Positions 1 to 17,888 are shown, numbered from the stretch's first letter. The stretch: DNA of 20,661 nt from a virus (IMGVR_UViG_2872152978_000006:1-20661), one strand, 5' to 3'. The notes: a model not told the origin generated them from the sequence alone. Translations and numbers: made by a program.

Positions 1-1203
1 GTGAAACTCAATGCCCGTCAAATAGACACAGCCAAGCCAAAAGAGAAGGCTTACAAGCTGGCCGATGGTGGCGGTTTGTATCTCTTGGTAAAACCTAATG
101 GAGGTAAATACTGGCGACTTAAATATCGTGTAGCTGGTAAAGAGAAGCTATTGGCACTAGGTGTGTATCCTGAGGTTACTCTAGCCGATGCTCGGGCAAA
201 ACGTGAAGATGCGAAAAGAGGTATCGCTGGTGGTATCGATCCGATGGAAGCGAAACGAGAGGAAAAGATTGCCCGGGAAACGCAGTTAAACAACACCTTC
301 AAAGATATTGCCCTTGAGTGGCACAGCAGCAAATTAAAAAAATGGTCTGCTGGTTATGCTTCAGACATCCTCGAAGCCTTCAACAAAGATGTGTTCCCTT
401 ACATTGGCAAAAAACCAATCGCCGAAATCAAACCACTTGAACTTCTGAATGTGCTGCGGCGCATCGAGGGGCGCGGTGCTACAGAAAAAGCCAAAAAAGT
501 GAGGCAGCGGTGCGGGGAAGTTTTCCGCTATGCAATAGTCACTGGTCGCGCAGAGTATAACCCTGCACCAGACCTTACTAGCGCGATGCAAGGCCATGAA
601 TCTAATCATTACCCTAAAGAATTACCTGATTTTTTCAAGGCATTGTCCAGTTACTCAGGAAGCGCATTGGTTGTTATGGCGGCTCGTCTACTGGTTATCA
701 CCGGCTTGCGGACTGGCGAACTACGTGGCGCATTATGGGATGAAATTGATTTCAACAAGGCTATCTGGGAGATACCCGCTTCACGTATGAAAATGCGGCG
801 GCCTCATATTGTGCCATTGTCTGATCAGGCTCTTTCGCTTATTGGGAAGATTAGAGAAATAACAGGCAATTACCCTCTTATGTTTCCCGGGCGCAATGAT
901 CCAAGGAAAACAATGAGTGAGGCCAGCATAAACCAAGTGTTTAAGCGCATTGGCTACGCTGGACGTGTAACTGGTCATGGGTTCCGGCACACTATGAGCA
1001 CGATTTTGCATGAGCAGGGCTATAACACCGCGTGGATAGAAACGCAGCTCGCTCACGTTGATAAGAACTCAATTCGTGGCACATACAACCATGCGCAATA
1101 TCTGGATGGAAGGCGGGAGATGCTTCAATGGTATGCCGACTATATGGATGCGCTGGAGAAGGAGGAGAACGTTGTTCATGGTTCGTTTGGGAAACGAGCT
1201 TAA
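1..1203 (+). CDS. P4/CP4-57-type tyrosine integrase (site-specific recombinase)
   Basis: 400-aa ORF with GTG start at window position 1; N-terminal motif KPKEKAYKLADGGGLYLLVKPNGGKYWRLKYR and C-terminal HGFRHT...HVDKN...RGTYNHAQY match the P4-type integrase family from memory. Start coincides with window edge, so a few N-terminal codons could lie upstream. Confidence 0.85.
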   Translation: MKLNARQIDTAKPKEKAYKLADGGGLYLLVKPNGGKYWRLKYRVAGKEKLLALGVYPEVTLADARAKREDAKRGIAGGIDPMEAKREEKIARETQLNNTFKDIALEWHSSKLKKWSAGYASDILEAFNKDVFPYIGKKPIAEIKPLELLNVLRRIEGRGATEKAKKVRQRCGEVFRYAIVTGRAEYNPAPDLTSAMQGHESNHYPKELPDFFKALSSYSGSALVVMAARLLVITGLRTGELRGALWDEIDFNKAIWEIPASRMKMRRPHIVPLSDQALSLIGKIREITGNYPLMFPGRNDPRKTMSEASINQVFKRIGYAGRVTGHGFRHTMSTILHEQGYNTAWIETQLAHVDKNSIRGTYNHAQYLDGRREMLQWYADYMDALEKEENVVHGSFGKRA

Positions 1204-1345
1204 CTGTATGAATAGACCGTGTTAAGCAATGGTAGTAGACTTATGTAGACGAACAAAGAATAGGCTATGTCTAGGCTGATCCCCGAAAACCCGTACACCC
1301 CTACGGGCTGGCATAGCCGTCAGAATTAGGGGCGCGGGGTGGCGT

Positions 1346-2227
1346 ATGGTGAGAGCCAAAAAACAAGATTTAGCATGGTTTGATATTAGTAATTATGAAT
1401 TTTTAAATGATTTAACCTTGCCGGACTTGATTCAAGAATTAGAGTGGCGCGATTTTTTATTGCGTCATGCAAAAGATGACACTGCTATATTCAAAGAAGA
1501 GTACGATATAAAATATGAAAGGATTTTTTCGGGCGATCCTAACCTAACCATTCTCAATGAAGAAGAGGAAGAGGTCGAAGAATTTATTCGCAAAGTAAAT
1601 GATGAAGCCCCATCATTAAGAAATGAGTACGATGATCTTCCCTCATTATCTTCAGCTATGGGGGTTAGTCCAGTAACATTTTCAGAGCTGGCCATGTACT
1701 CTTTCTCATCGATAGATCAAGGCTTTTTTAAAAGAGACGAAGAGGATTGCTACCTCAAGGCAAACGCTATGCTTGCGAGTGTTACTGGAAACCTAAGTAA
1801 TTGTTCCCCTAACATCATACTCGTTTCTATAGATTTAGATGACGCCACTGATGACGAAATTATTACCAGCCTGACTCACCTTCTACCTCTATGGCGAAAA
1901 GAGTTAAAAGTACCAGAGAGAGAGCATGTCGCTCAGAAAAGGATTGGATTAAAGACCCTTCAGAAGTTGATATCTAATAGAGTGATACCTATTGTTGATC
2001 TGCTGATTTGGGGTGAGAAGTCAGGTAAGGAAGTGAGCAATCCGATGATTTCTGCCTTGGTTTTTAGTGATGATCCGAAAGATACGCAGGCTATTAAGGA
2101 ATCAATAAAGCCTTTTGCACTTGAATCTATAAGCGAGAGATACACCCGCTTGCTTCAGCTTTATGTAAACAAAGACAGAGAAATGAGCTTGATAAAAATA
2201 TCTGATTTAATGAGTAGAGATTTATAG
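1346..2227 (+). CDS. hypothetical acidic protein, AT-rich cargo gene in the int-alpA slot
   Basis: 293-aa ORF, ATG start, visibly AT-rich relative to flanks, many D/E residues including an EEEEEVEE run; no family recognised. Confidence 0.55.
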   Translation: MVRAKKQDLAWFDISNYEFLNDLTLPDLIQELEWRDFLLRHAKDDTAIFKEEYDIKYERIFSGDPNLTILNEEEEEVEEFIRKVNDEAPSLRNEYDDLPSLSSAMGVSPVTFSELAMYSFSSIDQGFFKRDEEDCYLKANAMLASVTGNLSNCSPNIILVSIDLDDATDDEIITSLTHLLPLWRKELKVPEREHVAQKRIGLKTLQKLISNRVIPIVDLLIWGEKSGKEVSNPMISALVFSDDPKDTQAIKESIKPFALESISERYTRLLQLYVNKDREMSLIKISDLMSRDL

Positions 2228-2271
2228 CAAGCAAAATCCTACGTAAACGTTTTAAGTAAATTTCGCGATTT

Positions 2272-2306
2272 CCGCTTTGAATACGCTACTGTGTATTTCA
2301 AAGCGG
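2272..2306. promoter_or_regulatory. inverted repeat (10-bp arms CCGCTTTGAA / TTCAAAGCGG, 15-nt loop) upstream of alpA
   Basis: Perfect 10-bp arms read directly; lies between the orphan gene stop and alpA; no T-run directly after it, so function (terminator or operator) is uncertain. Confidence 0.3.
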
Positions 2307-2424
2307 ATAATCTTCTCAAAAAAATATTTTATTTTTATCCGCTATCACCCATTCACCGGTTTGTTTAATCTCCTTTCTGTCTACTGATGTCCATTAAAGA
2401 AGATGACAGAATATAGGAGTAAAC

Positions 2425-2622
2425 ATGTCTCAATCATTTATTCGTCTTTCTGAGGTTCAACGCCGTACTGGTTACAGCAAAGCGTGGATTTATCGGCTCA
2501 TCAAAGAACAGCGATTCCCTCAATCTGTAAAGATTGGAAGCCGATCAATTGCGTTTATTGAAAGTGAAATTGAAGAATGGATTAATCAGCGCATCGCTGA
2601 GTCGCGTGGCGAGGTAGCGTAA
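2425..2622 (+). CDS. alpA: AlpA-family phage transcriptional regulator / excisionase-like DNA-binding protein
   Basis: 65-aa ORF with AGGAG RBS; sequence FIRLSEVQRRTGYSKAWIYRLIKEQRFPQSVKIGSRSIAFIESEIEEWI fits the AlpA/Vis helix-turn-helix family. Confidence 0.85.
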   Translation: MSQSFIRLSEVQRRTGYSKAWIYRLIKEQRFPQSVKIGSRSIAFIESEIEEWINQRIAESRGEVA

Positions 2623-2964
2623 TGAATAAGAAAAACCGCCCATTACAGGCGGCTAATTCAGATATTCGCGTATCTGATGTTACGCCCCTTACAAAATCCC
2701 TTCAAGCACCAAAGCGCACACCGAAAAAGCATCGTGCCAGAGTCTATATGCTGCGTACTGGTATAGAGGGATGGACAGAAAATGACATTCTTCGCTACTG
2801 CCGTCTGTCTTCTGGTCGTAACTATGCAACAGAGTTAGAACGCCAGCTTGGAATCACTCTGGAACGTATCGACGAAAAGAATCCTGATGGTATCGGAACA
2901 CACCTTCGCTACCGTTTCTCCTGCCGTGGTGATGTTCTGAAAGTGATCACTCATGGATTTGCCC

Positions 2965-3870
2965 CTATATTTCCAGACATCTGTTATCACTTAACCCATT
3001 ACAAGCCCGCTGCCGCAGATATTCCCGTGGCGAGCGATAACCCAGCGCACTATGCGGATGCCATTCGTTATAATGCTCGAACGCCTCTGCAAGGTTCTTT
3101 GCTGCCGTTAACCCGTCTGGTTTGGGCATGATACTGATGTAGTCACGCTTTATCGTTTTCACGAAGCTCTCTGCTATTCCGTTACTCTCCGGACTCCGCA
3201 CCGCCGTGTTCTTCGGTTCAAGTCCCAACATCCGGGCGAACTGGCGTGTTTCATTAGCCCGGTAGCATGAACCATTATCCGTCAGCCACTCCACTGGAGA
3301 CGACGGAAGATCGTTGCCGAAGCGGCGTTCCACCGCTCCCAGCATGACGTCCTGTACTGTTTCACTGTTGAAGCCGCCGGTAGTCACCGCCCAGTGCAGT
3401 GCCTCACGATCACAGCAGTCCAGCGCGAACGTGACACGCAGTCTCTCTCCGTTATCACAGCAGAACTCGAACCCGTCAGAGCACCATCGCTGATTGCTTT
3501 CTTTCACGGCCACTCTGCCTGTATGTGCCCGTTTCGATGGTGGTACAGCAGGTTTTCGCTCAAGCAACAGCGCATTCTGGCGCATGATCCGGTAAACACG
3601 TTTGGCATTGATCGCAGGCATACCATCAAGTTCTGCCTGTCTGCGAAGCAGCGCCCATACCCGACGATAACCATACGTGGGCAGCTCTCCGATAACATGG
3701 TGTATACGGAGAAGCACATCCGTATCATCAGTGTGACGACTGCGGCGGCCATCCATCCAGTCATCGGTTCGTCTGAGAATGACGTGCAACTGCGCACGCG
3801 ACACCCGGAGACAACGGCTGACTAAGCTTACTCCCCATCCCCGGGCAATAAGGGCGCGTGCGCTATCCAC
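2965..3870 (-). CDS. insD: IS2 transposase OrfB (InsD)
   Basis: 301-aa ORF recognised as IS2 InsD (DDE integrase core, HSDRGSQY-type region). Confidence 0.9.
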
Positions 3871-4193
3871 TTTTTTGCCCGTCCATATTCAACGGCTTCT
3901 TTGAGGAGTTCATTTTCCATCGTTTTCTTGCCGAGCAGGCGCTGGAGTTCTTTAATCTGCTTCATGGCGGCAGCAAGTTCAGAGGCAGGAACAACCTGTT
4001 CTCCGGCGGCCACAGCAGTAAGACTTCCTTCCTGGTATTGCTTACGCCAGAGAAATAACTGGCTGGCTGCTACACCATGTTGCCGGGCAACGAGGGAGAC
4101 CGTCATCCCCGGTTCAAAGCTCTGCTGAACAATTGCGATCTTTTCCTGTGTGGTACGCCGTCTGCGTTTCTCCGGCCCTAAGACATCAATCAT
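3828..4193 (-). CDS. insC: IS2 OrfA (InsC), HTH protein
   Basis: Start placed at the internal Met of the 136-aa ORF ([25 protein letters not shown]...), giving the 121-aa InsC; overlaps insD start as expected for a frameshift-fusion IS3-family element. Confidence 0.85.
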
Positions 4194-4401
4194 CTGTACT
4201 CCAATGACTAGTCTAAAAACTAGTATTAAGACTATCACTTATTTAAGTGATACTGGTTGTCTGGAGATTCAGGGGGCCAGTCTAACTCATATTAACCATC
4301 TTGCGAACATAAATGATCACAACGGACTTTCTCAGCAGGAAATTGCCGACATTCTGAAACTCTACCCGGACGCGTTTAACGCCGCTTAACGGAGACTGAA
4401 A

Positions 4402-5235
4402 ATGAACATCGAAAAAAGCAGATTAATTTCTGAGGCCGCCCCTCATCTGAACGCCTCTCTGAGCACAATTAACGGTAATGAATTTGCCGCAATTGTCCCG
4501 GTTATTCCTGGTCATATCGGTGGGCGTGAAACCAATATTGTTAGCGCAAAAGCGTTACACAAAGCGTTGGGCGTGGGAAAAGACTTCTCTACATGGATCA
4601 CTGATCGCATCTCTGAATATGACTTCACCATTGGGCACGATTACTCAGTCCATAAAACAATTTCCCCAAATTTGGGGAAAAGCCCGAATGGCGCGGCTTA
4701 CAGCAAGATTAAGCAGTCTGGCAGACCCGGCAAAGACTATCTGTTAAGTGTCGGAATGGCGAAAGAACTGGCAATGATCGAACGCAATGATCAGGGTCAC
4801 GCTATCCGCCGTTATTTCATCCAGTGCGAGGAAGAATTACAGCGTAGCGTGCCTGAAATCGCCGCACGCTATCGTCGCCAGCTAAAAGCCCGTATCAGTG
4901 CCGCAAACAACTTTAAGCCAATGTGCGATGCGCTGAATATGGCCCGTGCCGAGATGGGGAAAACGACGCAGCAACACCACTACACAAACGAGAGCAATAT
5001 GATTTCTCGTATCGTTCTTGGTGGGCTAACTGCTAAGCAGTGGGCGCGGATAAATGGCTATTCTGGCGAACCTCGCGACCATATGAACGCAGAACAGCTT
5101 GAGCACCTCTCATATCTCGAAAGCACCAATATCACGTTAATTGATATGGGCATGGAATATGAGCAGCGCAAAGGAGAACTCACCCGCCTGTCGCAACGCT
5201 GGCTCGCCAAGCGTCTGGAGGCGCTCAATGTCTAA
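4402..5235 (+). CDS. phage antirepressor-like protein (AntA/Bro-N-type N-terminal domain)
   Basis: 277-aa ORF; region SAKALHKALGVGKDFSTWITDRISEYDFTIGHDY and GMAKELAMIERNDQGHAIRRYFIQCEEEL resemble AntA/antirepressor domains. Family call from memory. Confidence 0.55.
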   Translation: MNIEKSRLISEAAPHLNASLSTINGNEFAAIVPVIPGHIGGRETNIVSAKALHKALGVGKDFSTWITDRISEYDFTIGHDYSVHKTISPNLGKSPNGAAYSKIKQSGRPGKDYLLSVGMAKELAMIERNDQGHAIRRYFIQCEEELQRSVPEIAARYRRQLKARISAANNFKPMCDALNMARAEMGKTTQQHHYTNESNMISRIVLGGLTAKQWARINGYSGEPRDHMNAEQLEHLSYLESTNITLIDMGMEYEQRKGELTRLSQRWLAKRLEALNV

Positions 5236-5407
5236 GCCAACAGGAACACCACAACCACAAAAACGCTACAAAGATGCCCACGGAGCACTCGTTACTGTCG
5301 AAAGCGTGTCTCACAACCGAGTGACGTTTTATCGCGACGGGTATCAATCGCCATGCGTACAACCGCTGGCGCGTTTCATGAAGGAGTTCGCGGAGGTTAA
5401 CCAATGA
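5228..5407 (+). CDS. small hypothetical protein (59 aa)
   Basis: ATG at 5228 overlaps the upstream stop (AATGTCTAA) and its stop overlaps the next start (ATGA): translational coupling. Confidence 0.4.
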   Translation: MSKPTGTPQPQKRYKDAHGALVTVESVSHNRVTFYRDGYQSPCVQPLARFMKEFAEVNQ

Positions 5408-6065
5408 TACCCGTCCAGAAGAAGACATTTTCACTGGCTGGCATGTCGCCAAAATCCAGAAATATGACGGCAAAGTCAGGCATTAATACAGCAGATACAA
5501 GCAAAGTTTATCATTTGCTGGTGGTCGGAACGGATGCCTTAACCATACCAGAAATCTCGGGCGATGATATTAGCATTGAGAAGGTCAGCGGCTGCGCCAG
5601 AAAATTTCTGGTCGTAGATGATGTCTTCAGCTCGTGTAGTGACTCCACAAAAACATTCGTCCACGCGCGTGACGTTAACGAAATGAGCGCGATGTACTGT
5701 GCTTCTGGTTCTTCCAATAGTGAGTTTTCGGAGTCCATAAAAAAGAGCTTGCCGTTATGCGGCAACACGGTTTATGGTTATAAGGCACCTCATAAAACGG
5801 GTGCCGGGATTGGCGTCCTGGTAAATCGAATGGCGACATATGACGCGCCGAGCGTCTTTTTTTATGTCGTAGGTCTGACTCACCCATTTTTTGGGCGTTG
5901 GTGTATAATCCAGCGCCTTTGTCAATCAATGGTGGCTCAGGCAGGGGCTTCTTCGGAAGCGCCGGTATCCATTCGAGCCGGTTACGCCAACCCTGTCTGG
6001 GCTACCACCAGCGAAATTGGCGTTTCCGGTGGTAGCGTTACATGCTATCGAATGGAGGCTGCCAC
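5404..6065 (+). CDS. hypothetical protein; 3' extent uncertain (the open frame continues to 6471 but overlaps better-supported small genes in other frames)
   Basis: Start is coupled to the upstream gene by ATGA overlap; 355 stop-free codons are unlikely by chance, but the protein has no recognisable features. Confidence 0.25.
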
Positions 6066-6260
6066 ATGCTGGCTACTACCCCTACCCAAAAACCGCAATT
6101 TATCTGGATTATCGCCGCAGTTCGCCGCGATTGCCCGACAATTACCGCCAAAATTCATCATATTGCTGCCGAGTCTGAACGCGATGCTCGCCGTTATCTG
6201 GTGCGCGATCACATCTGCTTTTTTGCTGGTCGTATCCGCATGGAGGTGGCACATGATTAA
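6066..6260 (+). CDS. Icd-like small protein (host cell division inhibitor family of P4-like elements)
   Basis: 64-aa ORF with GGAGG RBS 7 nt upstream; motif QFIWIIAAVRR...AAESERDARRYL...FAGRI resembles Icd-like proteins. From memory. Confidence 0.45.
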   Translation: MLATTPTQKPQFIWIIAAVRRDCPTITAKIHHIAAESERDARRYLVRDHICFFAGRIRMEVAHD

Positions 6261-6471
6261 AACCTACGATGTGCATATGGATCCCCTCGAACGCACAAGC
6301 CAGATCATCACACTGACAGAAGTGATTAACGACATTCTGGTGAGCAACTCTCCCTCACGAGACGAAAGACTGAAGGCGTTACTCGCGATATTGGATCTCG
6401 CCGTTCGTGACGTTCATTTCCTGCTGGAAGGTGGCGAAATGCCAGGAAAAACGGGGGCAACCAATGAATAA
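6253..6471 (+). CDS. small hypothetical protein (72 aa)
   Basis: ATG with GGAGG RBS; start overlaps the Icd-like stop; stop overlaps the next start. Confidence 0.4.
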   Translation: MIKTYDVHMDPLERTSQIITLTEVINDILVSNSPSRDERLKALLAILDLAVRDVHFLLEGGEMPGKTGATNE

Positions 6472-6658
6472 CTCAATTAATACCCCTCGCCTTACGTCCG
6501 CACTTCAATTAATCGAGCAAGCAGCGGCTGTCCTGGTTGCTGTCAGTCTTTCGGCTGAAGAAATGGACGCTACTGATGTCGTGGATGCGATTAAAGCGTG
6601 CTCATCTTTGGTTAACGATGCCCGTGCCGAGCTGGTAATTCTTGGGGGTGAAAAATGA
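6464..6658 (+). CDS. small hypothetical protein (64 aa)
   Basis: ATG at 6464 inside the longer track ORF 6407-6658; overlapping start/stop with neighbours. Confidence 0.4.
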   Translation: MNNSINTPRLTSALQLIEQAAAVLVAVSLSAEEMDATDVVDAIKACSSLVNDARAELVILGGEK

Positions 6659-6918
6659 ATATCAACTTAATTTATCGTCATCCGTGTGAGCTGGAAATTG
6701 AATCATTGCTGGGGCGTGAAGAGCCATATCCAGACACATTCACTCCCGCAGATTGCGCGACTGAACGGCTTACCAGAGCGCGCACAGGTCTGGTTCATGT
6801 GATGAATGAGATTGTTCCCTCGGTGGGAGGGGAACAGGCGACAGTAATCAATAGCTGGCTACAAAAAGTTACCTCCCTGATAGATATCGGTTTAATCGAT
6901 GTGGAGAGTGCGAAATGA
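6655..6918 (+). CDS. small hypothetical protein (87 aa)
   Basis: ATGA overlap with upstream gene; part of the coupled small-gene chain. Confidence 0.45.
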   Translation: MNINLIYRHPCELEIESLLGREEPYPDTFTPADCATERLTRARTGLVHVMNEIVPSVGGEQATVINSWLQKVTSLIDIGLIDVESAK

Positions 6919-7070
6919 CCAACATCCAGCTCATTGAAGCGCAATGTCGCATCGAACAGGTTCAGACTGTTTTAGGGTTCTGGCTTGAAGGGGCCAGCCC
7001 CAGCAACAGAGACAAGTTAATGATTGGCGCGGTTATGTCACTGCTCAATGGCGTACCAGAAGCTATTTAG
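6915..7070 (+). CDS. small hypothetical protein (51 aa)
   Basis: ATGA overlap with upstream stop; below the ORF-track length cutoff; translated by eye as MTNIQLIEAQCRIEQVQTVLGFWLEGASPSNRDKLMIGAVMSLLNGVPEAI. Confidence 0.35.
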   Translation: MTNIQLIEAQCRIEQVQTVLGFWLEGASPSNRDKLMIGAVMSLLNGVPEAI

Positions 7071-8958: not shown

Positions 8959-9462
8959 ATGGTAGTGTCCGCTATTGCCAGTACACCTCACCGGGTGGCA
9001 TGGATAAACCCGGAAGAGAGTAAATCAAACCGCGCAATTGGCGTTGCGCTGAATGATACTGCATGTCGCGTATTGAAAAAACAAATCGGGAATCATCACC
9101 GTTGGGTATTTGTGTATAAGGAAAGCTGTACCAAACCAGACGGAACGAAAGCGCCAACAGTCAGGAAGATGCGGTATGACGCAAACACAGCCTGGAAAGC
9201 GGCGCTGAGACGAGCAGGTATTGATGATTTCAGATTTCACGACTTGAGACACACCTGGGCAAGTTGGCTGGTTCAAGCCGGAGTCCCGTTATCAGTGTTA
9301 CAGGAAATGGGAGGCTGGGAGTCTATCGAAATGGTTCGTCGATATGCTCACCTCGCACCTAATCACCTTACCGAACACGCACGGCAAATAGACTCGATTC
9401 TGAACCCATCGGTCCCAAATTTGTCCCAGTCAAGAAATAAGGAACGTACTAATGATGTGTAA
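8959..9462 (+). pseudogene. C-terminal fragment (about 155 aa) of a tyrosine integrase
   Basis: Contains the catalytic HxxR box ([11 protein letters not shown]) and Tyr region ([12 protein letters not shown]) but not the N-terminal domains or first catalytic Arg; begins right after the IS3-family remnant. Integrase homology starts near 8990. Confidence 0.7.
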
Positions 9463-14623: not shown

Positions 14624-15205
14624 TTGCTGCACGCTTACAAAAAAGCGGGTTTTCACCCGTCAGAATCTGGCGGGGATCCGTCAGTAAAATCAAAACATGA
14701 TCCGTCAGATAAAAAACCTTCTCGTCCGGACGCTTCGCAACCGGACACGCAGACGGCTGAACAGGATTTTTTAACTCGCCATCCTGATGCGGTTGTATTC
14801 AGCCCTAAAAAGCGCCAGTGGGGGACGCAGGATGATTTGACCTGCGCACAGTGGCTCTGGAAAAAAATCATCGCCCTGTACGAGCAGGCTGCCGAATGTG
14901 ACGGCGAGGTGGTTCGTCCCAAAGAACCGAACTGGACAGCCTGGGCAAACGAAATTCGCCTGATGTGTGTACAGGATGGCCGTACACACAAACAAATCTG
15001 CGAGATGTACAGCCGCGTCAGCCGCGATCCGTTCTGGTGCCGTAACGTGCTCAGCCCGTCGAAGTTGCGGGAAAAATGGGATGAGCTTTCCCTGCGCTTA
15101 TCGCCGTCCGTCAGCACGCACACAGAAAAACGTGAAGACCCGTACTTCAAAGCCAGTTACGACAACGTGGACTACAGCCAGATCCCGGCAGGATTCAGGG
15201 GGTGA
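14624..15205 (+). CDS. DnaT-like phage replication protein (primosomal DnaT C-terminal domain); 5' end abuts or is interrupted by the IS66 element
   Basis: C-terminus ...SYDNVDYSQIPAGFRG parallels the E. coli DnaT C-terminal end (...SQIPPGFRG, from memory); the ORF-track start is a TTG inside the IS terminal repeat, so the native start is probably lost or upstream of the insertion. Confidence 0.6.
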   Translation: MLHAYKKAGFHPSESGGDPSVKSKHDPSDKKPSRPDASQPDTQTAEQDFLTRHPDAVVFSPKKRQWGTQDDLTCAQWLWKKIIALYEQAAECDGEVVRPKEPNWTAWANEIRLMCVQDGRTHKQICEMYSRVSRDPFWCRNVLSPSKLREKWDELSLRLSPSVSTHTEKREDPYFKASYDNVDYSQIPAGFRG

Positions 15206-15207
15206 GC

Positions 15208-15696
15208 ATGAGTCTTTTGAATGACGTTCAGAAATTCATTGAAGCCCATCCGGGGTGTACTTCCGGAGACATTGCGGATGCTTTTGCAGGTTACTCACGG
15301 CAGCGCGTTCTGCAGTCTGCAAGCAAGTTACGTCAGAGTGGGCGTGTGGCTCACCGTTGTGAAGGAGATACACGCAGACATTTCCCGCGCCTGACTGAGA
15401 GAGCGCAGGAACCGGGACCACAATCAGTTCGAGAAACCAGACCTGTGCGCAATTTCTATGTCGGCACTAACGATCCCCGGGTGATTTTGTGCCTGACCCG
15501 CCAGGCTGAAGAACTGGAGTCCAGGGGCTTATACCGTCGTGCTGCAACGGTGTGGATGGCGGCATTCCGTGAAAGCCACTCCCAGCCAGAACGAAACAAT
15601 TTTCTGGCGCGTCGTGAGCGGTGCTTACGGAAAAGCAGCAAGCGCGCTGTATCGGGTGATGAGTGGTATCTGTCAGGGAATTACGTGGGGGCTTAA
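15208..15696 (+). CDS. PerC-family regulator with N-terminal winged-helix-like extension
   Basis: Contains AEELESRGLYRRAATVWMAAF, paralogous to the motif in 11189-11470; ATG 15208 preferred (GGGGG RBS) over the overlapping GTG at 15202. Confidence 0.65.
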   Translation: MSLLNDVQKFIEAHPGCTSGDIADAFAGYSRQRVLQSASKLRQSGRVAHRCEGDTRRHFPRLTERAQEPGPQSVRETRPVRNFYVGTNDPRVILCLTRQAEELESRGLYRRAATVWMAAFRESHSQPERNNFLARRERCLRKSSKRAVSGDEWYLSGNYVGA

Positions 15697-16349
15697 TGAG
15701 TAATAAATATTGCCAGGCGCTGGTGGAGTTGCGAAACAAACCAGCCCATGAACTGAAGGAAGTGGGCGATCAGTGGCGCACACCGGACAACATTTTCTGG
15801 GGAATTAACACCCTGTTTGGCCCGTTTGTTCTGGAGCTGTTTACTGACGGTGATAACGCCAAATGTGCCGCGTATTACACGGCGGAAGACAACGCGCTGG
15901 CGCATGACTGGTCAGAACGTCTTGCGGAGCTTAAAGGTGCTGCCTTTGGAAATCCTCCATACAGCCGCGCCAGTCAGCATGAGGGGCAATACATCACCGG
16001 CATGCGTTACATCATGAAACATGCCAGTGCCATGCGTGATAAGGGCGGGCGCTATGTTTTCCTGATCAAAGCTGCCACCAGCGAAGTGTGGTGGCCGGAA
16101 GATGCGGATCATATTGCTTTTATTCGCGGGCGTATTGGTTTTGAACTGCCTGCCTGGTTTATCCCGAAAGACGAGAAGCAGGTGCCAACCGGTGCTTTCT
16201 TCGCTGGTGCTATTGCCGTTTTCGACAAGACCTGGAAGGGACCGGCAATCAGCTACATCGGGCGCGATGAACTTGAGGCATGTGGTGAGGCCTTTCTGGC
16301 GCAAGTTCGCCAGCAGGCAGAAAAACTTGTCAGGGAGATGGCGGCATGA
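15696..16349 (+). CDS. phage DNA N6-adenine methyltransferase (Dam-like)
   Basis: ATG overlaps upstream stop (TAATG); catalytic NPPY motif (FGNPPYS) and overall similarity to phage Dam methylases. Confidence 0.75.
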   Translation: MSNKYCQALVELRNKPAHELKEVGDQWRTPDNIFWGINTLFGPFVLELFTDGDNAKCAAYYTAEDNALAHDWSERLAELKGAAFGNPPYSRASQHEGQYITGMRYIMKHASAMRDKGGRYVFLIKAATSEVWWPEDADHIAFIRGRIGFELPAWFIPKDEKQVPTGAFFAGAIAVFDKTWKGPAISYIGRDELEACGEAFLAQVRQQAEKLVREMAA

Positions 16350-16672
16350 CGACGTTAACTCAATGCCAGCAGCAGGTGCTGGATATGCTGATTTCTTACC
16401 AGAAAGAACGTGGCTTCCCGCCAACCAATCAGGAGGTGGCAACCATGCTGGGATACCGTTCAGTGAATGCAGCGGTGGAGCATCTTAGAGCACTGGAGAA
16501 AAAAGGCGTCATCACGATAAAGCGTGGTGTGGCCCGTGGTATCACTCTTCATACCGCGGTGAAGGACGACGACAGCGAGGCGGTCGGGATTATCCGCTCA
16601 CTGCTTGCCGGTGAGGAAAACGCAAGGCTGCGTGCAACTCACTGGTTACATGAGAGAGGCCTGAAAGTATGA
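16346..16672 (+). CDS. LexA-like N-terminal DNA-binding domain protein (no peptidase domain)
   Basis: ATGA coupling; LTQCQQQVLDMLISYQKERGFPPTNQEVATMLGYRSVNAAVEHLRALEKKGVI resembles the LexA winged-helix DNA-binding domain. Confidence 0.65.
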   Translation: MTTLTQCQQQVLDMLISYQKERGFPPTNQEVATMLGYRSVNAAVEHLRALEKKGVITIKRGVARGITLHTAVKDDDSEAVGIIRSLLAGEENARLRATHWLHERGLKV

Positions 16673-17058
16673 AGCTGATCCTGCCTTTCCCGCCCAGCGT
16701 GAACACCTACTGGCGACACCCCAACAAAGGGGCATTTGCTGGTAAGAGCCTGATAAGCGCGGCGGGGCGAAAATTTCAGAGCGCGGCGTGCGCAGCAATA
16801 GTTGAGCAGTTACGTCGTCTGCCAAAACCAACGTCGGCACCTGCTTCAGTGGAGATCGTGTTGTTTCCTCCGGATAACCGGATCCGCGATCTGGACAACT
16901 ATAACAAGGCGCTGTTTGACGCCCTGACCCACGCGGGTGTGTGGGAAGACGACAGACAGGTGAAAAGAATGCTGGTGGAGTGGGGACCGGTTATCCCGAA
17001 AGGGAAGGTCGAGATCACTATCAGTAAGTATGAGAAACCGGCGGGTGCAGCCGCCTGA
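16669..17058 (+). CDS. rusA: RusA-family Holliday junction resolvase
   Basis: 129-aa ORF; LPFPPSVNTYWRH...DLDNYNKALFDALTHAGVWEDD matches RusA endodeoxyribonuclease motifs including the catalytic Asp cluster. Confidence 0.85.
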   Translation: MKLILPFPPSVNTYWRHPNKGAFAGKSLISAAGRKFQSAACAAIVEQLRRLPKPTSAPASVEIVLFPPDNRIRDLDNYNKALFDALTHAGVWEDDRQVKRMLVEWGPVIPKGKVEITISKYEKPAGAAA

Positions 17059-17077
17059 TTAAGAGGAGAAACGAAGT

Positions 17078-17887
17078 ATGAATAATCTGATGGTTATTGA
17101 TGGTATTGAAGTTCGTCGTGATGCTTATGGGCGTTACAGCCTGAACGATCTGCACAGGGCAGCCGGGGGAGAACAAAAAAACCGCCCGAAATACTGGCTC
17201 TCCAATAAGCAAACCTGTGAATTGATTGAACAACTTTTCACCGAGGGTGGAATTCCGCCTCTGGAACAAAATCAACCAGTTAGCGTCATTAATGGCGGAA
17301 ATAACCAGGGGACGTATGTCTGCAAAGAACTGGTGTATGCCTATGCAATGTGGATCAGCCCGTCATTCCATCTGAAGGTGATCCGTACTTTCGATATGGT
17401 AACCAGCGCACCGGAAAAATTATCCGGGCAGGCTGCTGACAAGATGCAGGCTGGAGTGATTCTGCTGGACTTTATGCGCAGGGAGTTAAACCTGTCTAAC
17501 TCTTCAGTGCTTGGTGCCTGTCAGAAACTCCAGGAGGCTGTTGGCTTACCGAATCTGGCACCGCGCTATGCCATTGATGCTCCTGCTGACGCGCCTGATG
17601 GCTCAAGTCGCCCTACGCTGTCGCTGAGTGCACTGCTGAAACAGTATGGTATCCGCCTTACGGCTAATCAGGCATATCACCAGATGGCGAAGCTGGGGAT
17701 CGTTGAACAACGCGAACGATACAGCCGTACCTCGATTAACAACATCAAAAAATTCTGGTCGCTGACAGCGAAAGGCTGCATGTTCGGCAAGAACATCACC
17801 AGTCCCGCAAATCCGCGCGAGACGCAGCCGCATTTCTTCGAATCCCGATTCCCTGAGCTGTTAAAGCTGCTCGATACCGTTCATTGA
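17078..17887 (+). CDS. KilA-N domain protein
   Basis: AGGAG RBS; N-terminal MVIDGIEVRRDAYGRYSLNDLHRAAGGEQKNRPKYWLSNKQT typical of the KilA-N DNA-binding domain. Confidence 0.7.
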   Translation: MNNLMVIDGIEVRRDAYGRYSLNDLHRAAGGEQKNRPKYWLSNKQTCELIEQLFTEGGIPPLEQNQPVSVINGGNNQGTYVCKELVYAYAMWISPSFHLKVIRTFDMVTSAPEKLSGQAADKMQAGVILLDFMRRELNLSNSSVLGACQKLQEAVGLPNLAPRYAIDAPADAPDGSSRPTLSLSALLKQYGIRLTANQAYHQMAKLGIVEQRERYSRTSINNIKKFWSLTAKGCMFGKNITSPANPRETQPHFFESRFPELLKLLDTVH

Positions 17888-17888
17888 G

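Follow-up and report, generated by a model that had tools for sequence, protein, structure and literature searches.

A DUF6387 gene behind an int-alpA RNA leader in an exchangeable slot between integrase and alpA of an EcCIMP1-like island

The int-alpA interval, its island and its DUF6387 gene

The stretch of viral DNA analyzed here (IMGVR_UViG_2872152978_000006:1-20661; hereafter the window) is 20,661 nucleotides long, and all positions are counted from its first letter. It begins 12 nt inside the gene of a P4-type tyrosine integrase (int; 1-1203, plus strand), in which the Arm-DNA-bind_3, Phage_int_M and Phage_integrase domains of Pfam were recognized. On the same strand follow the gene under study (1346-2227), an intact ORF with an ATG start that encodes a protein of 293 aa, and alpA (2425-2622), whose product matches the AlpA/HTH_17 excision factor and activator (PF05930, 8.9e-20). 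This ORF and its position between a P4-type integrase and AlpA had been reported in a preliminary description of the sequence and were confirmed, as was the AT-richness of the ORF relative to its flanks: its GC content is 0.380, compared to 0.477 for int, 0.514 for the 142-nt spacer 5′ of the ORF and 0.434 for alpA.

The RefSeq context of the gene is proA - tRNA-Thr - int, and the int genes of relatives lie just 3′ of tRNA-Thr (thrW). Identical copies at thrW after proA consist of int, the DUF6387 gene, alpA, a gene for a 143-aa protein and antA. The same attachment site is used by EcCIMP1 of E. coli MP1, an experimentally validated phage-inducible chromosomal island that excises, is induced by helper phage, is transduced and is mobilized by phage Kapi1 (PMC11773190). 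The window is 97.4% identical to EcCIMP1 over 1-1179, in the integrase region, 88.9% over 2434-2954 and 94% over 4285-7000; from alpA to antA and across C4/isrK the identity is 89-94%. Between these parts, window positions 1180-2433 (1254 bp, with the RNA described below and the DUF6387 gene) are replaced by an unrelated sequence of ~470 bp with a small “UvrB-like” ORF. The co-directional int-alpA-antA order, the location at thrW and the close homology to a validated island identify the island of the window as EcCIMP1-like. Given that EcCIMP1, the closest satellite shown to work and 94-97% identical in its flanks, has neither the RNA nor DUF6387, the DUF6387 gene is, as judged from this comparison, dispensable for the basic satellite cycle and hence accessory rather than essential.

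The island copy in the window is degraded. An IS2 is found at 2955-4284, with more IS elements beyond, and the part of the window that belongs to the island showed no primase ORF, and hence no intact replication module, while intact relatives go on to Ash and a P4-type primase. The IS2, whose InsC/InsD ORFs are on the minus strand, splits the conserved 143-aa gene after alpA and thereby yields a 169-aa fusion ORF at 2622-3131.

The slot gene had been taken for an orphan that matches no recognized family, which does not hold. Its product matches PF19924 (DUF6387) with E = 3.7e-38 and 132 bits over profile positions 6-256 of 258, where the curated cut-off is 28.9 bits, and this score and the nearly full-length match place it in the family. 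All of the 40 diverse relatives also score to PF19924, and RefSeq names the protein a DUF6387 family protein (WP_000251023.1). The window protein is 100% identical to the sequence at the head of a 374-member cluster, and homologues with 43-92% identity, in which the C-terminal motifs are strongly conserved, are found in Salmonella, Yersinia, Pantoea, Klebsiella, Providencia, Morganella and others. An exhaustive profile search identified 513 representatives of 50%-identity clusters, to which a second homologue search with a diverse profile added only 3 further proteins. In the alignment of 40 diverse members, W11, Y17 and R184 are invariant and F12, R35, D169, L180, D218 and T253 are near-invariant. 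The ORF is a real gene under clear constraint, not an orphan.

The strong acidity also noted in the preliminary description stands for the window protein, which has a net charge of −20, a pI of 4.62 and an EEEEEVEE run, but not for the family. The acidic run is not kept across the 40 diverse members, and the pI varies within the family from 4.6 to 9.4; most members are acidic and several are basic (pI 8-9.4). Residues 71-110, a non-conserved linker modeled with low confidence, carry a net charge of −9.

The AF2 model of DUF6387, with the diverse alignment as input, reached a pLDDT of 86.8 and a pTM of 0.77. The predicted fold had no relative among solved structures, a Foldseek search of the model against BFVD gave no match, and neither the single sequence nor the profile matched any PDB sequence. 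The window protein matched nothing in NCBIfam, a single family of unknown function in PHROGs, and no family of PADLOC-DB 2.0 at E up to 10. No helix-turn-helix or any other DNA-binding domain was detected in DUF6387, and no domain fusions were found in its longer members. Of the homology and structure checks that had been proposed, the Pfam search thus returned a family, and the PADLOC and fold searches came back empty.

The structured leader and the spacer before alpA

The spacer between int and the ORF contains the int-alpA RNA of Rfam (RF02996; 1263-1332, plus strand). With cmscan, the match scores 46.7 bits over model positions 1-71 of 71 (window 1264-1331, plus strand), compared to a gathering score of 35.8 bits, and membership is supported both by this covariance-model score and by covarying pairs. 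In 66 distinct leaders, the P1 helix (1263-1271/1310-1318), the P2 helix (1290-1294/1303-1307) and a pseudoknot (1298-1303/1327-1332), all on the plus strand, are 98, 97 and 95% paired, respectively. The pseudoknot joins the P2 loop (CCUCU) to an AGAGG tract, and that of the window differs from the consensus by two compensatory changes. Pairing is found in 93.7% of the cells of the 66 aligned leaders vs. 38-45% with the partners slid, compensatory changes on both sides occur at 12 pairs, and none of 500 shuffles equaled the observed pairing, although the shuffles overstate its significance because the aligned leaders are related sequences, for which the slid controls are fairer. The GGCTATG/CATAGCC repeat (1263-1269/1312-1318) had been correctly placed in a GC-rich spacer; it is not an anonymous inverted repeat, however, but part of the P1 stem of this RNA.

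A Shine-Dalgarno tract (GGGGTGG, consensus GAGGTGG; 1336-1342) begins 4 nt 3′ of the pseudoknot end and together with the ATG occupies 1336-1348 on the plus strand; GAGGTGGCGT(N)ATG is nearly invariant in the 66 leaders. The RNA precedes DUF6387 in five of six species loci, among them that of a Gilliamella homologue (28% identity) to which no integrase is adjacent, while EcCIMP1 has neither RNA nor slot gene. Given that the RNA travels with the ORF and not with int, we interpret it as a 5′ leader belonging to the variable slot ORF, the translation of which it may control. RF02996 is filed by Rfam as an sRNA, whereas the window RNA, which fits the whole model and lies between int and alpA on their strand, would like its counterparts in ~100 loci be a leader 5′ of a variable ORF. 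The leader of the thrW island of E. coli ZF31 (L032, 4027-4108) is 87% identical to that of the window and had no Rfam match at E up to 0.01; with GGGGAGG at the P2/P1 junction in place of the GGGCTGG of the others, this copy may have decayed.

Just 5′ of the leader are three TAGAC boxes (at 1213, 1236 and 1246), which include a candidate weak sigma-70 promoter (1213-1250, plus strand) that consists of TAGACC, a 17-nt spacer and TAGACT. The region is kept across genera in two alignments. A consensus promoter scan made no call at 1213-1250, so the candidate promoter rests on reading of the sequence; it would start a transcript just 5′ of the structured RNA. In addition to the three copies at 1213-1250, the GTAGAC/TAGAC motif is found once, in either orientation, 20-45 nt 5′ of alpA (window 2379-2384; also L054, L101 and L114). 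Given that the motif occurs in islands with differing cassettes, it may be a binding site of a conserved factor such as AlpA.

The spacer between the DUF6387 gene and alpA contains a perfect hairpin with 11-nt arms (2271-2281/2297-2307, plus strand; −24.9 kcal/mol, z = −6.2), which had been described with 10-bp arms at 2272-2306 and which none of 200 shuffles matched in folding. It is overlapped by a second inverted repeat, AGCGGATAA/TTATCCGCT (2302-2310/2335-2343, plus strand). The Salmonella orthologue has hairpin arms CGCTTTGAA/TTCAAAGCG at the same offset, and TTTTTTAT follows them; conservation of the window arms is confined to E. coli and Salmonella, and the other DUF6387 orthologues are without them. 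As the same arms in Salmonella are followed by TTTTTT, the hairpin is most simply explained as a terminator, probably that of the slot gene itself, with an operator role also possible. The two repeats, which had been thought to bracket the ORF, are accordingly not a pair, one being the P1 stem of the RNA and the other most likely a terminator.

Inverted repeats in the spacer 5′ of alpA are cassette-specific and general among the slot families. An 11-bp palindrome, ACCCTNAGGGT, is present in 3-5 copies in one family and a 12-bp palindrome, CCGCAATTGCGG, in 1 or 2 copies in another, both confined to this spacer; neither was found outside it in loci of 7-15 kb. In the spacer of L114 (about 2141-2401), a 33-nt tandem unit, TTACCATCACCCTTAGGGTTAATTTCCTTCCGA, is repeated three times, each time with ACCCTNAGGGT. 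The same unit was also noted for L058, L061 and L122; in none of these four loci is the palindrome found elsewhere, and the arrangement looks like an operator or iteron array. A GTCTAC box and the alpA ribosome-binding region (2379-2424, plus strand) were placed by cassette alignments at the right-hand end of the replaceable segment.

Exchange of the slot gene and its linkage to alpA

The leader sequence is found in 128 of 5426 complete E. coli genomes. The diverged E. coli leaders are followed by unrelated proteins of 265 or 239 aa, for which the hhalign probability of relation to DUF6387 is <1%. Among islands with differing slot genes, DNA homology covers the 3′ end of int, the RNA and the Shine-Dalgarno tract, ends at the start codon and returns only ~20 nt 5′ of the alpA ATG. 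The DUF6387 gene belongs to a self-contained, replaceable unit of conserved promoter-proximal region, int-alpA RNA with its pseudoknot against the ribosome-binding site, exchangeable AT-rich ORF and cassette-specific hairpin- or palindrome-bearing spacer, extending to the ribosome-binding site of alpA.

IMG/VR was then scanned for a sequence pattern based on the core of the RNA and not on the protein, which gave 119 loci; ~15 of these, with HNH-, GIY-YIG- or Dcm-like genes and no nearby int or alpA, were excluded as chance matches. In nearly all RNA-anchored loci an ORF starts 53-84 nt past the CTAGG anchor. A P4-type integrase ends 50-340 nt before the anchor in 62 of the 74 loci with upstream room, and an AlpA homologue is found past the slot in 78 of the 93 loci with downstream room, 62 of them 45-260 nt past it and 16 after an apparent two-gene slot. 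Mostly, the slot holds a single gene for roughly 100-360 aa. The 66 distinct validated slot proteins fell into 16 BLAST clusters, or 14 after merging of clusters related over their full length, and 2 clusters with 7 distinct proteins belong to DUF6387. One conserved RNA is followed in this slot by at least 14 unrelated families of protein, DUF6387 among them. At each of the 76 loci compared, the slot gene has a lower GC content than the neighboring int (mean 39.1 vs. 49.0%). Of the earlier proposal of a cargo slot, what is borne out is that the int-alpA interval is an exchangeable, AT-rich slot, and the comparison of related islands revealed that the DUF6387 gene is not conserved at this position in all of them, since unrelated genes replace it.

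Representatives of eight other large slot families matched no Pfam family and no PADLOC system, and PADLOC searches with 14 slot proteins (that of the window and 13 others) gave nothing beyond sub-threshold coiled-coil noise. Profile comparison linked some slot clusters through N- or C-terminal modules, while DUF6387 stands alone. The slot proteins of L038, L064, L058 and L039 (families C4, C11, C1 and C2) have in common a C-terminal module of ~65 aa (W-S-T-Y-D ... P-T ... Y-L ... G-A-S ... L-R-P), and families C2, C6 and C10 have in common an N-terminal module of ~45 aa. Such shared modules (hhalign 76-99%) in otherwise unrelated proteins indicate domain shuffling among the slot genes. An HTH_17-like start, suspected by eye in several slot families, is unsupported, as the hhalign probabilities against an AlpA profile were <5%.

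The alpA alleles track the slot family and not int. Islands with slot genes of the same family have alpA genes of 94-98% identity, also when their int genes match at only 80-90%; when the slot families differ, the identity of alpA is ~75%, even with 95-100% identity in int plus leader. DUF6387 itself is followed directly by an AlpA gene in a Serratia island, in PICI-like islands that occupy six different tRNA sites and, with an AlpA-type gene, in ROD21-like (EARL) islands. A relative with 25% identity is also directly 5′ of an AlpA gene, with extra genes after int. In ICEKp258.2, the gene next to the excision factor is annotated as DUF6387 (PMC10763509); the EARL excision factor SEN1998 has been studied and the neighboring gene at the DUF6387 position has not (PMC8844411). 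The DUF6387 protein of EARL islands such as ICEKp258.2 resembles that of the window in its full-length HMM match, its similar length and the AlpA-type gene downstream. In contrast to the window, where the gene is replaceable and directly after int, the EARL gene is part of the conserved backbone, and the DUF6387-AlpA pair lies at the other end of the island from int, which it faces across attP only after excision and circularization.

The only context of DUF6387 seen without alpA is that of a member with 23% identity in Erwinia amylovora contigs (L013 and L014, 2146-4875), where on a conjugative-plasmid-like contig it is flanked by an ankyrin-like gene and a D12-class DNA methyltransferase gene.

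Possible roles of the slot protein

In the Vibrio PICMI satellites, int and alpA enclose a gene of unknown function with 13 families (iolg/icg), without which excision is abolished (PMC10803314). The arrangement is that of the window, where int ends at 1203, the ORF occupies 1346-2227 and alpA begins at 2425: a single gene in the interval, with 13 unrelated families there and at least 14 here. The likeness is one of position. iolg is apparently co-expressed with int, which it usually overlaps by 1-13 nt, whereas the window has a 142-nt gap with a structured RNA, and in contrast to PICMI, EcCIMP1, the sister island, excises and functions although it has no comparable gene.

We tentatively favor the reading that DUF6387 is an exchangeable lifecycle or specificity factor linked to AlpA, and not a generic defense gene or a DNA mimic. 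The slot unit would be transcribed on its own, starting just after int; the conserved leader would set the level of translation of whichever protein follows; and the hairpin would shield alpA from read-through. As a partner of the AlpA switch that is specific to its lineage, DUF6387 would influence the timing, or the choice of helper, of alpA-driven excision and activation. Its target could be the expression of alpA, or it could work together with Int and AlpA, as proposed by analogy with iolg. This reading is favored because DUF6387 adjoins AlpA genes in several types of element, alpA alleles follow the slot family, the leader covaries and is tied to the slot ORF, some slot families confine repeated palindromes to the pre-alpA spacer, the 14 slot proteins gave no PADLOC defense match, and deletion of the PICMI int-alpA gene abolishes excision (PMC10803314). 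The support from PICMI is weakened, however, because the requirement of iolg for excision was shown for PICMI115 only and the deletion was complemented only by int and iolg together (PMC10803314). Against a partnership with AlpA are also that EcCIMP1 works without the RNA and DUF6387, that the palindrome after DUF6387 looks like a terminator, that the co-variation of alpA could be plain linkage of adjacent genes, and that AT-richness, a promoter and terminator of its own and replaceability also mark moron-type defense cargo.

The main alternative is that the slot is a hotspot of such cargo. Proteins for anti-phage interference or superinfection exclusion, each encoded by a single gene, would be made by the integrated island from the conserved promoter and leader, with DUF6387 as one unrecognized defense protein. 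We consider this somewhat doubtful. It would account for the many unrelated families in the slot, the AT-richness of the slot gene at every locus compared, the end of homology at the start codon and its return at the alpA ribosome-binding site, the terminator-like hairpin owned by the unit and the dispensability of the slot gene in EcCIMP1. Satellites are known carriers of defense genes (PMC13586616), and EcCIMP1 confers superinfection immunity without a recognizable defense system, its small slot ORF being deemed accessory by the authors (PMC11773190). AT-richness, replaceability and dispensability fit defense cargo and an AlpA partner equally well, however, and other observations point away from cargo. 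Known hotspots are full of recognizable systems, whereas none of the 14 scanned slot proteins matched PADLOC; defense loci vary widely in size, whereas the slots hold mostly single genes in a limited size range; DUF6387 is a conserved backbone gene beside the excision factor in ROD21-like islands; and the right-hand alpA differs between cassettes, unlike the core genes of classical hotspots. A defense or abortive-infection effector, which the preliminary description had suggested, is not supported: neither the window protein nor 10 other slot families matched PADLOC. If the slot proteins are defense genes after all, the slot would be an uncharted hotspot of unknown single-gene systems.

The other suggestion made there, a DNA mimic, is likewise unsupported. 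As an establishment or anti-defense factor, the acidic protein would be made with integrase on entry and would neutralize restriction or another barrier, a role in keeping with its pI and charge, the acidity of most DUF6387 members and the position of the gene right after int. The D12-class methyltransferase/ankyrin-like neighborhood of the 23%-identity Erwinia member resembles plasmid anti-defense regions, and the methyltransferase there is an orphan on a conjugative-plasmid contig, but this is one plasmid context only. The charge of the window protein, moreover, is concentrated in the non-conserved linker, several members are basic, and the invariant residues are W11, Y17 and R184 rather than acidic patches. 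The conserved surface-wide negative charge and the elongated, DNA-like fold of Ocr/ArdA-like mimics were not found in DUF6387, and we regard such a role as quite unlikely. It is very improbable that the slot protein is incidental and that the RNA, as a trans-acting small RNA or a 3′ structure of the int mRNA, is the functional element. Rfam does type RF02996 as an sRNA, and nothing downstream of the RNA comes near it in conservation. Nevertheless, the ORF is intact and constrained, with 513 family representatives and C-terminal motifs kept at 43-92% identity; at nearly all loci an ORF follows the RNA at a fixed short distance with an invariant Shine-Dalgarno tract; and where there is no slot gene, as in EcCIMP1, there is no RNA.

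An extended form of the AlpA-partner reading, in which leader RNA, slot gene and alpA make up an immunity-like switch of Gram-negative phage satellites with slot proteins as helper-specific sensors and the leader as control point and recombination anchor, seems unlikely to us. By analogy, lambdoid immunity regions and the Stl region of SaPIs may be compared, in which a variable block of regulator plus spacer beside the lytic or excision switch gene is swapped as a unit within conserved flanks; the co-variation of alpA with the slot block would be the counterpart in the islands described here. The analogy is limited in that DUF6387 has no detected helix-turn-helix and the genes are co-directional and not divergent; the combination of helix-turn-helix and cognate operators that defines Stl/CI-type master repressors was not found for DUF6387. 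If such a switch exists, the variable slot proteins would decide which phage turns on alpA, and the pseudoknot leader would be both a common translational control point and the anchor for sensor swaps. The PICMI and EcCIMP1 papers both name the mechanism by which helper phages activate alpA in Gram-negative satellites as an open problem (PMC10803314, PMC11773190).

Irrespective of the role of the protein, the locus is a defined, portable three-part unit of structured leader, swappable unannotated gene (at least 14 families) and co-traveling alpA allele. The Rfam int-alpA motif gains a concrete genomic role as the probable leader of a variable ORF, and two kinds of mobile island now connect DUF6387, a family of more than 500 clusters, with AlpA-type excision modules.

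The remainder of the window contains further RNAs and remnants of other elements. Downstream of antA, an isrK Hfq-binding RNA (5785-5862, plus strand, 67.1 bits) lies beside a C4 antisense RNA (5925-6012, plus strand, 79.5 bits), and a mechanically called 355-aa ORF (5404-6471) is doubtful because both RNAs lie inside it. The recurrence of the isrK and C4 pair in Escherichia sp. MOD1-EC7003 (L002), L032 and EcCIMP1 suggests that a P1/P7-type c4-ant immunity circuit may be present in EcCIMP1-like islands. Farther downstream are a second integrase fragment that comprises the C-terminal part only (8959-9462) and a lambdoid-prophage remnant with Dam-like methylase, LexA-like, RusA and Q-type antiterminator genes (14624-19650), set apart by IS3-family, IS66-family and IS1 elements. 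As a whole, the window is a patchwork of mobile elements in decay.
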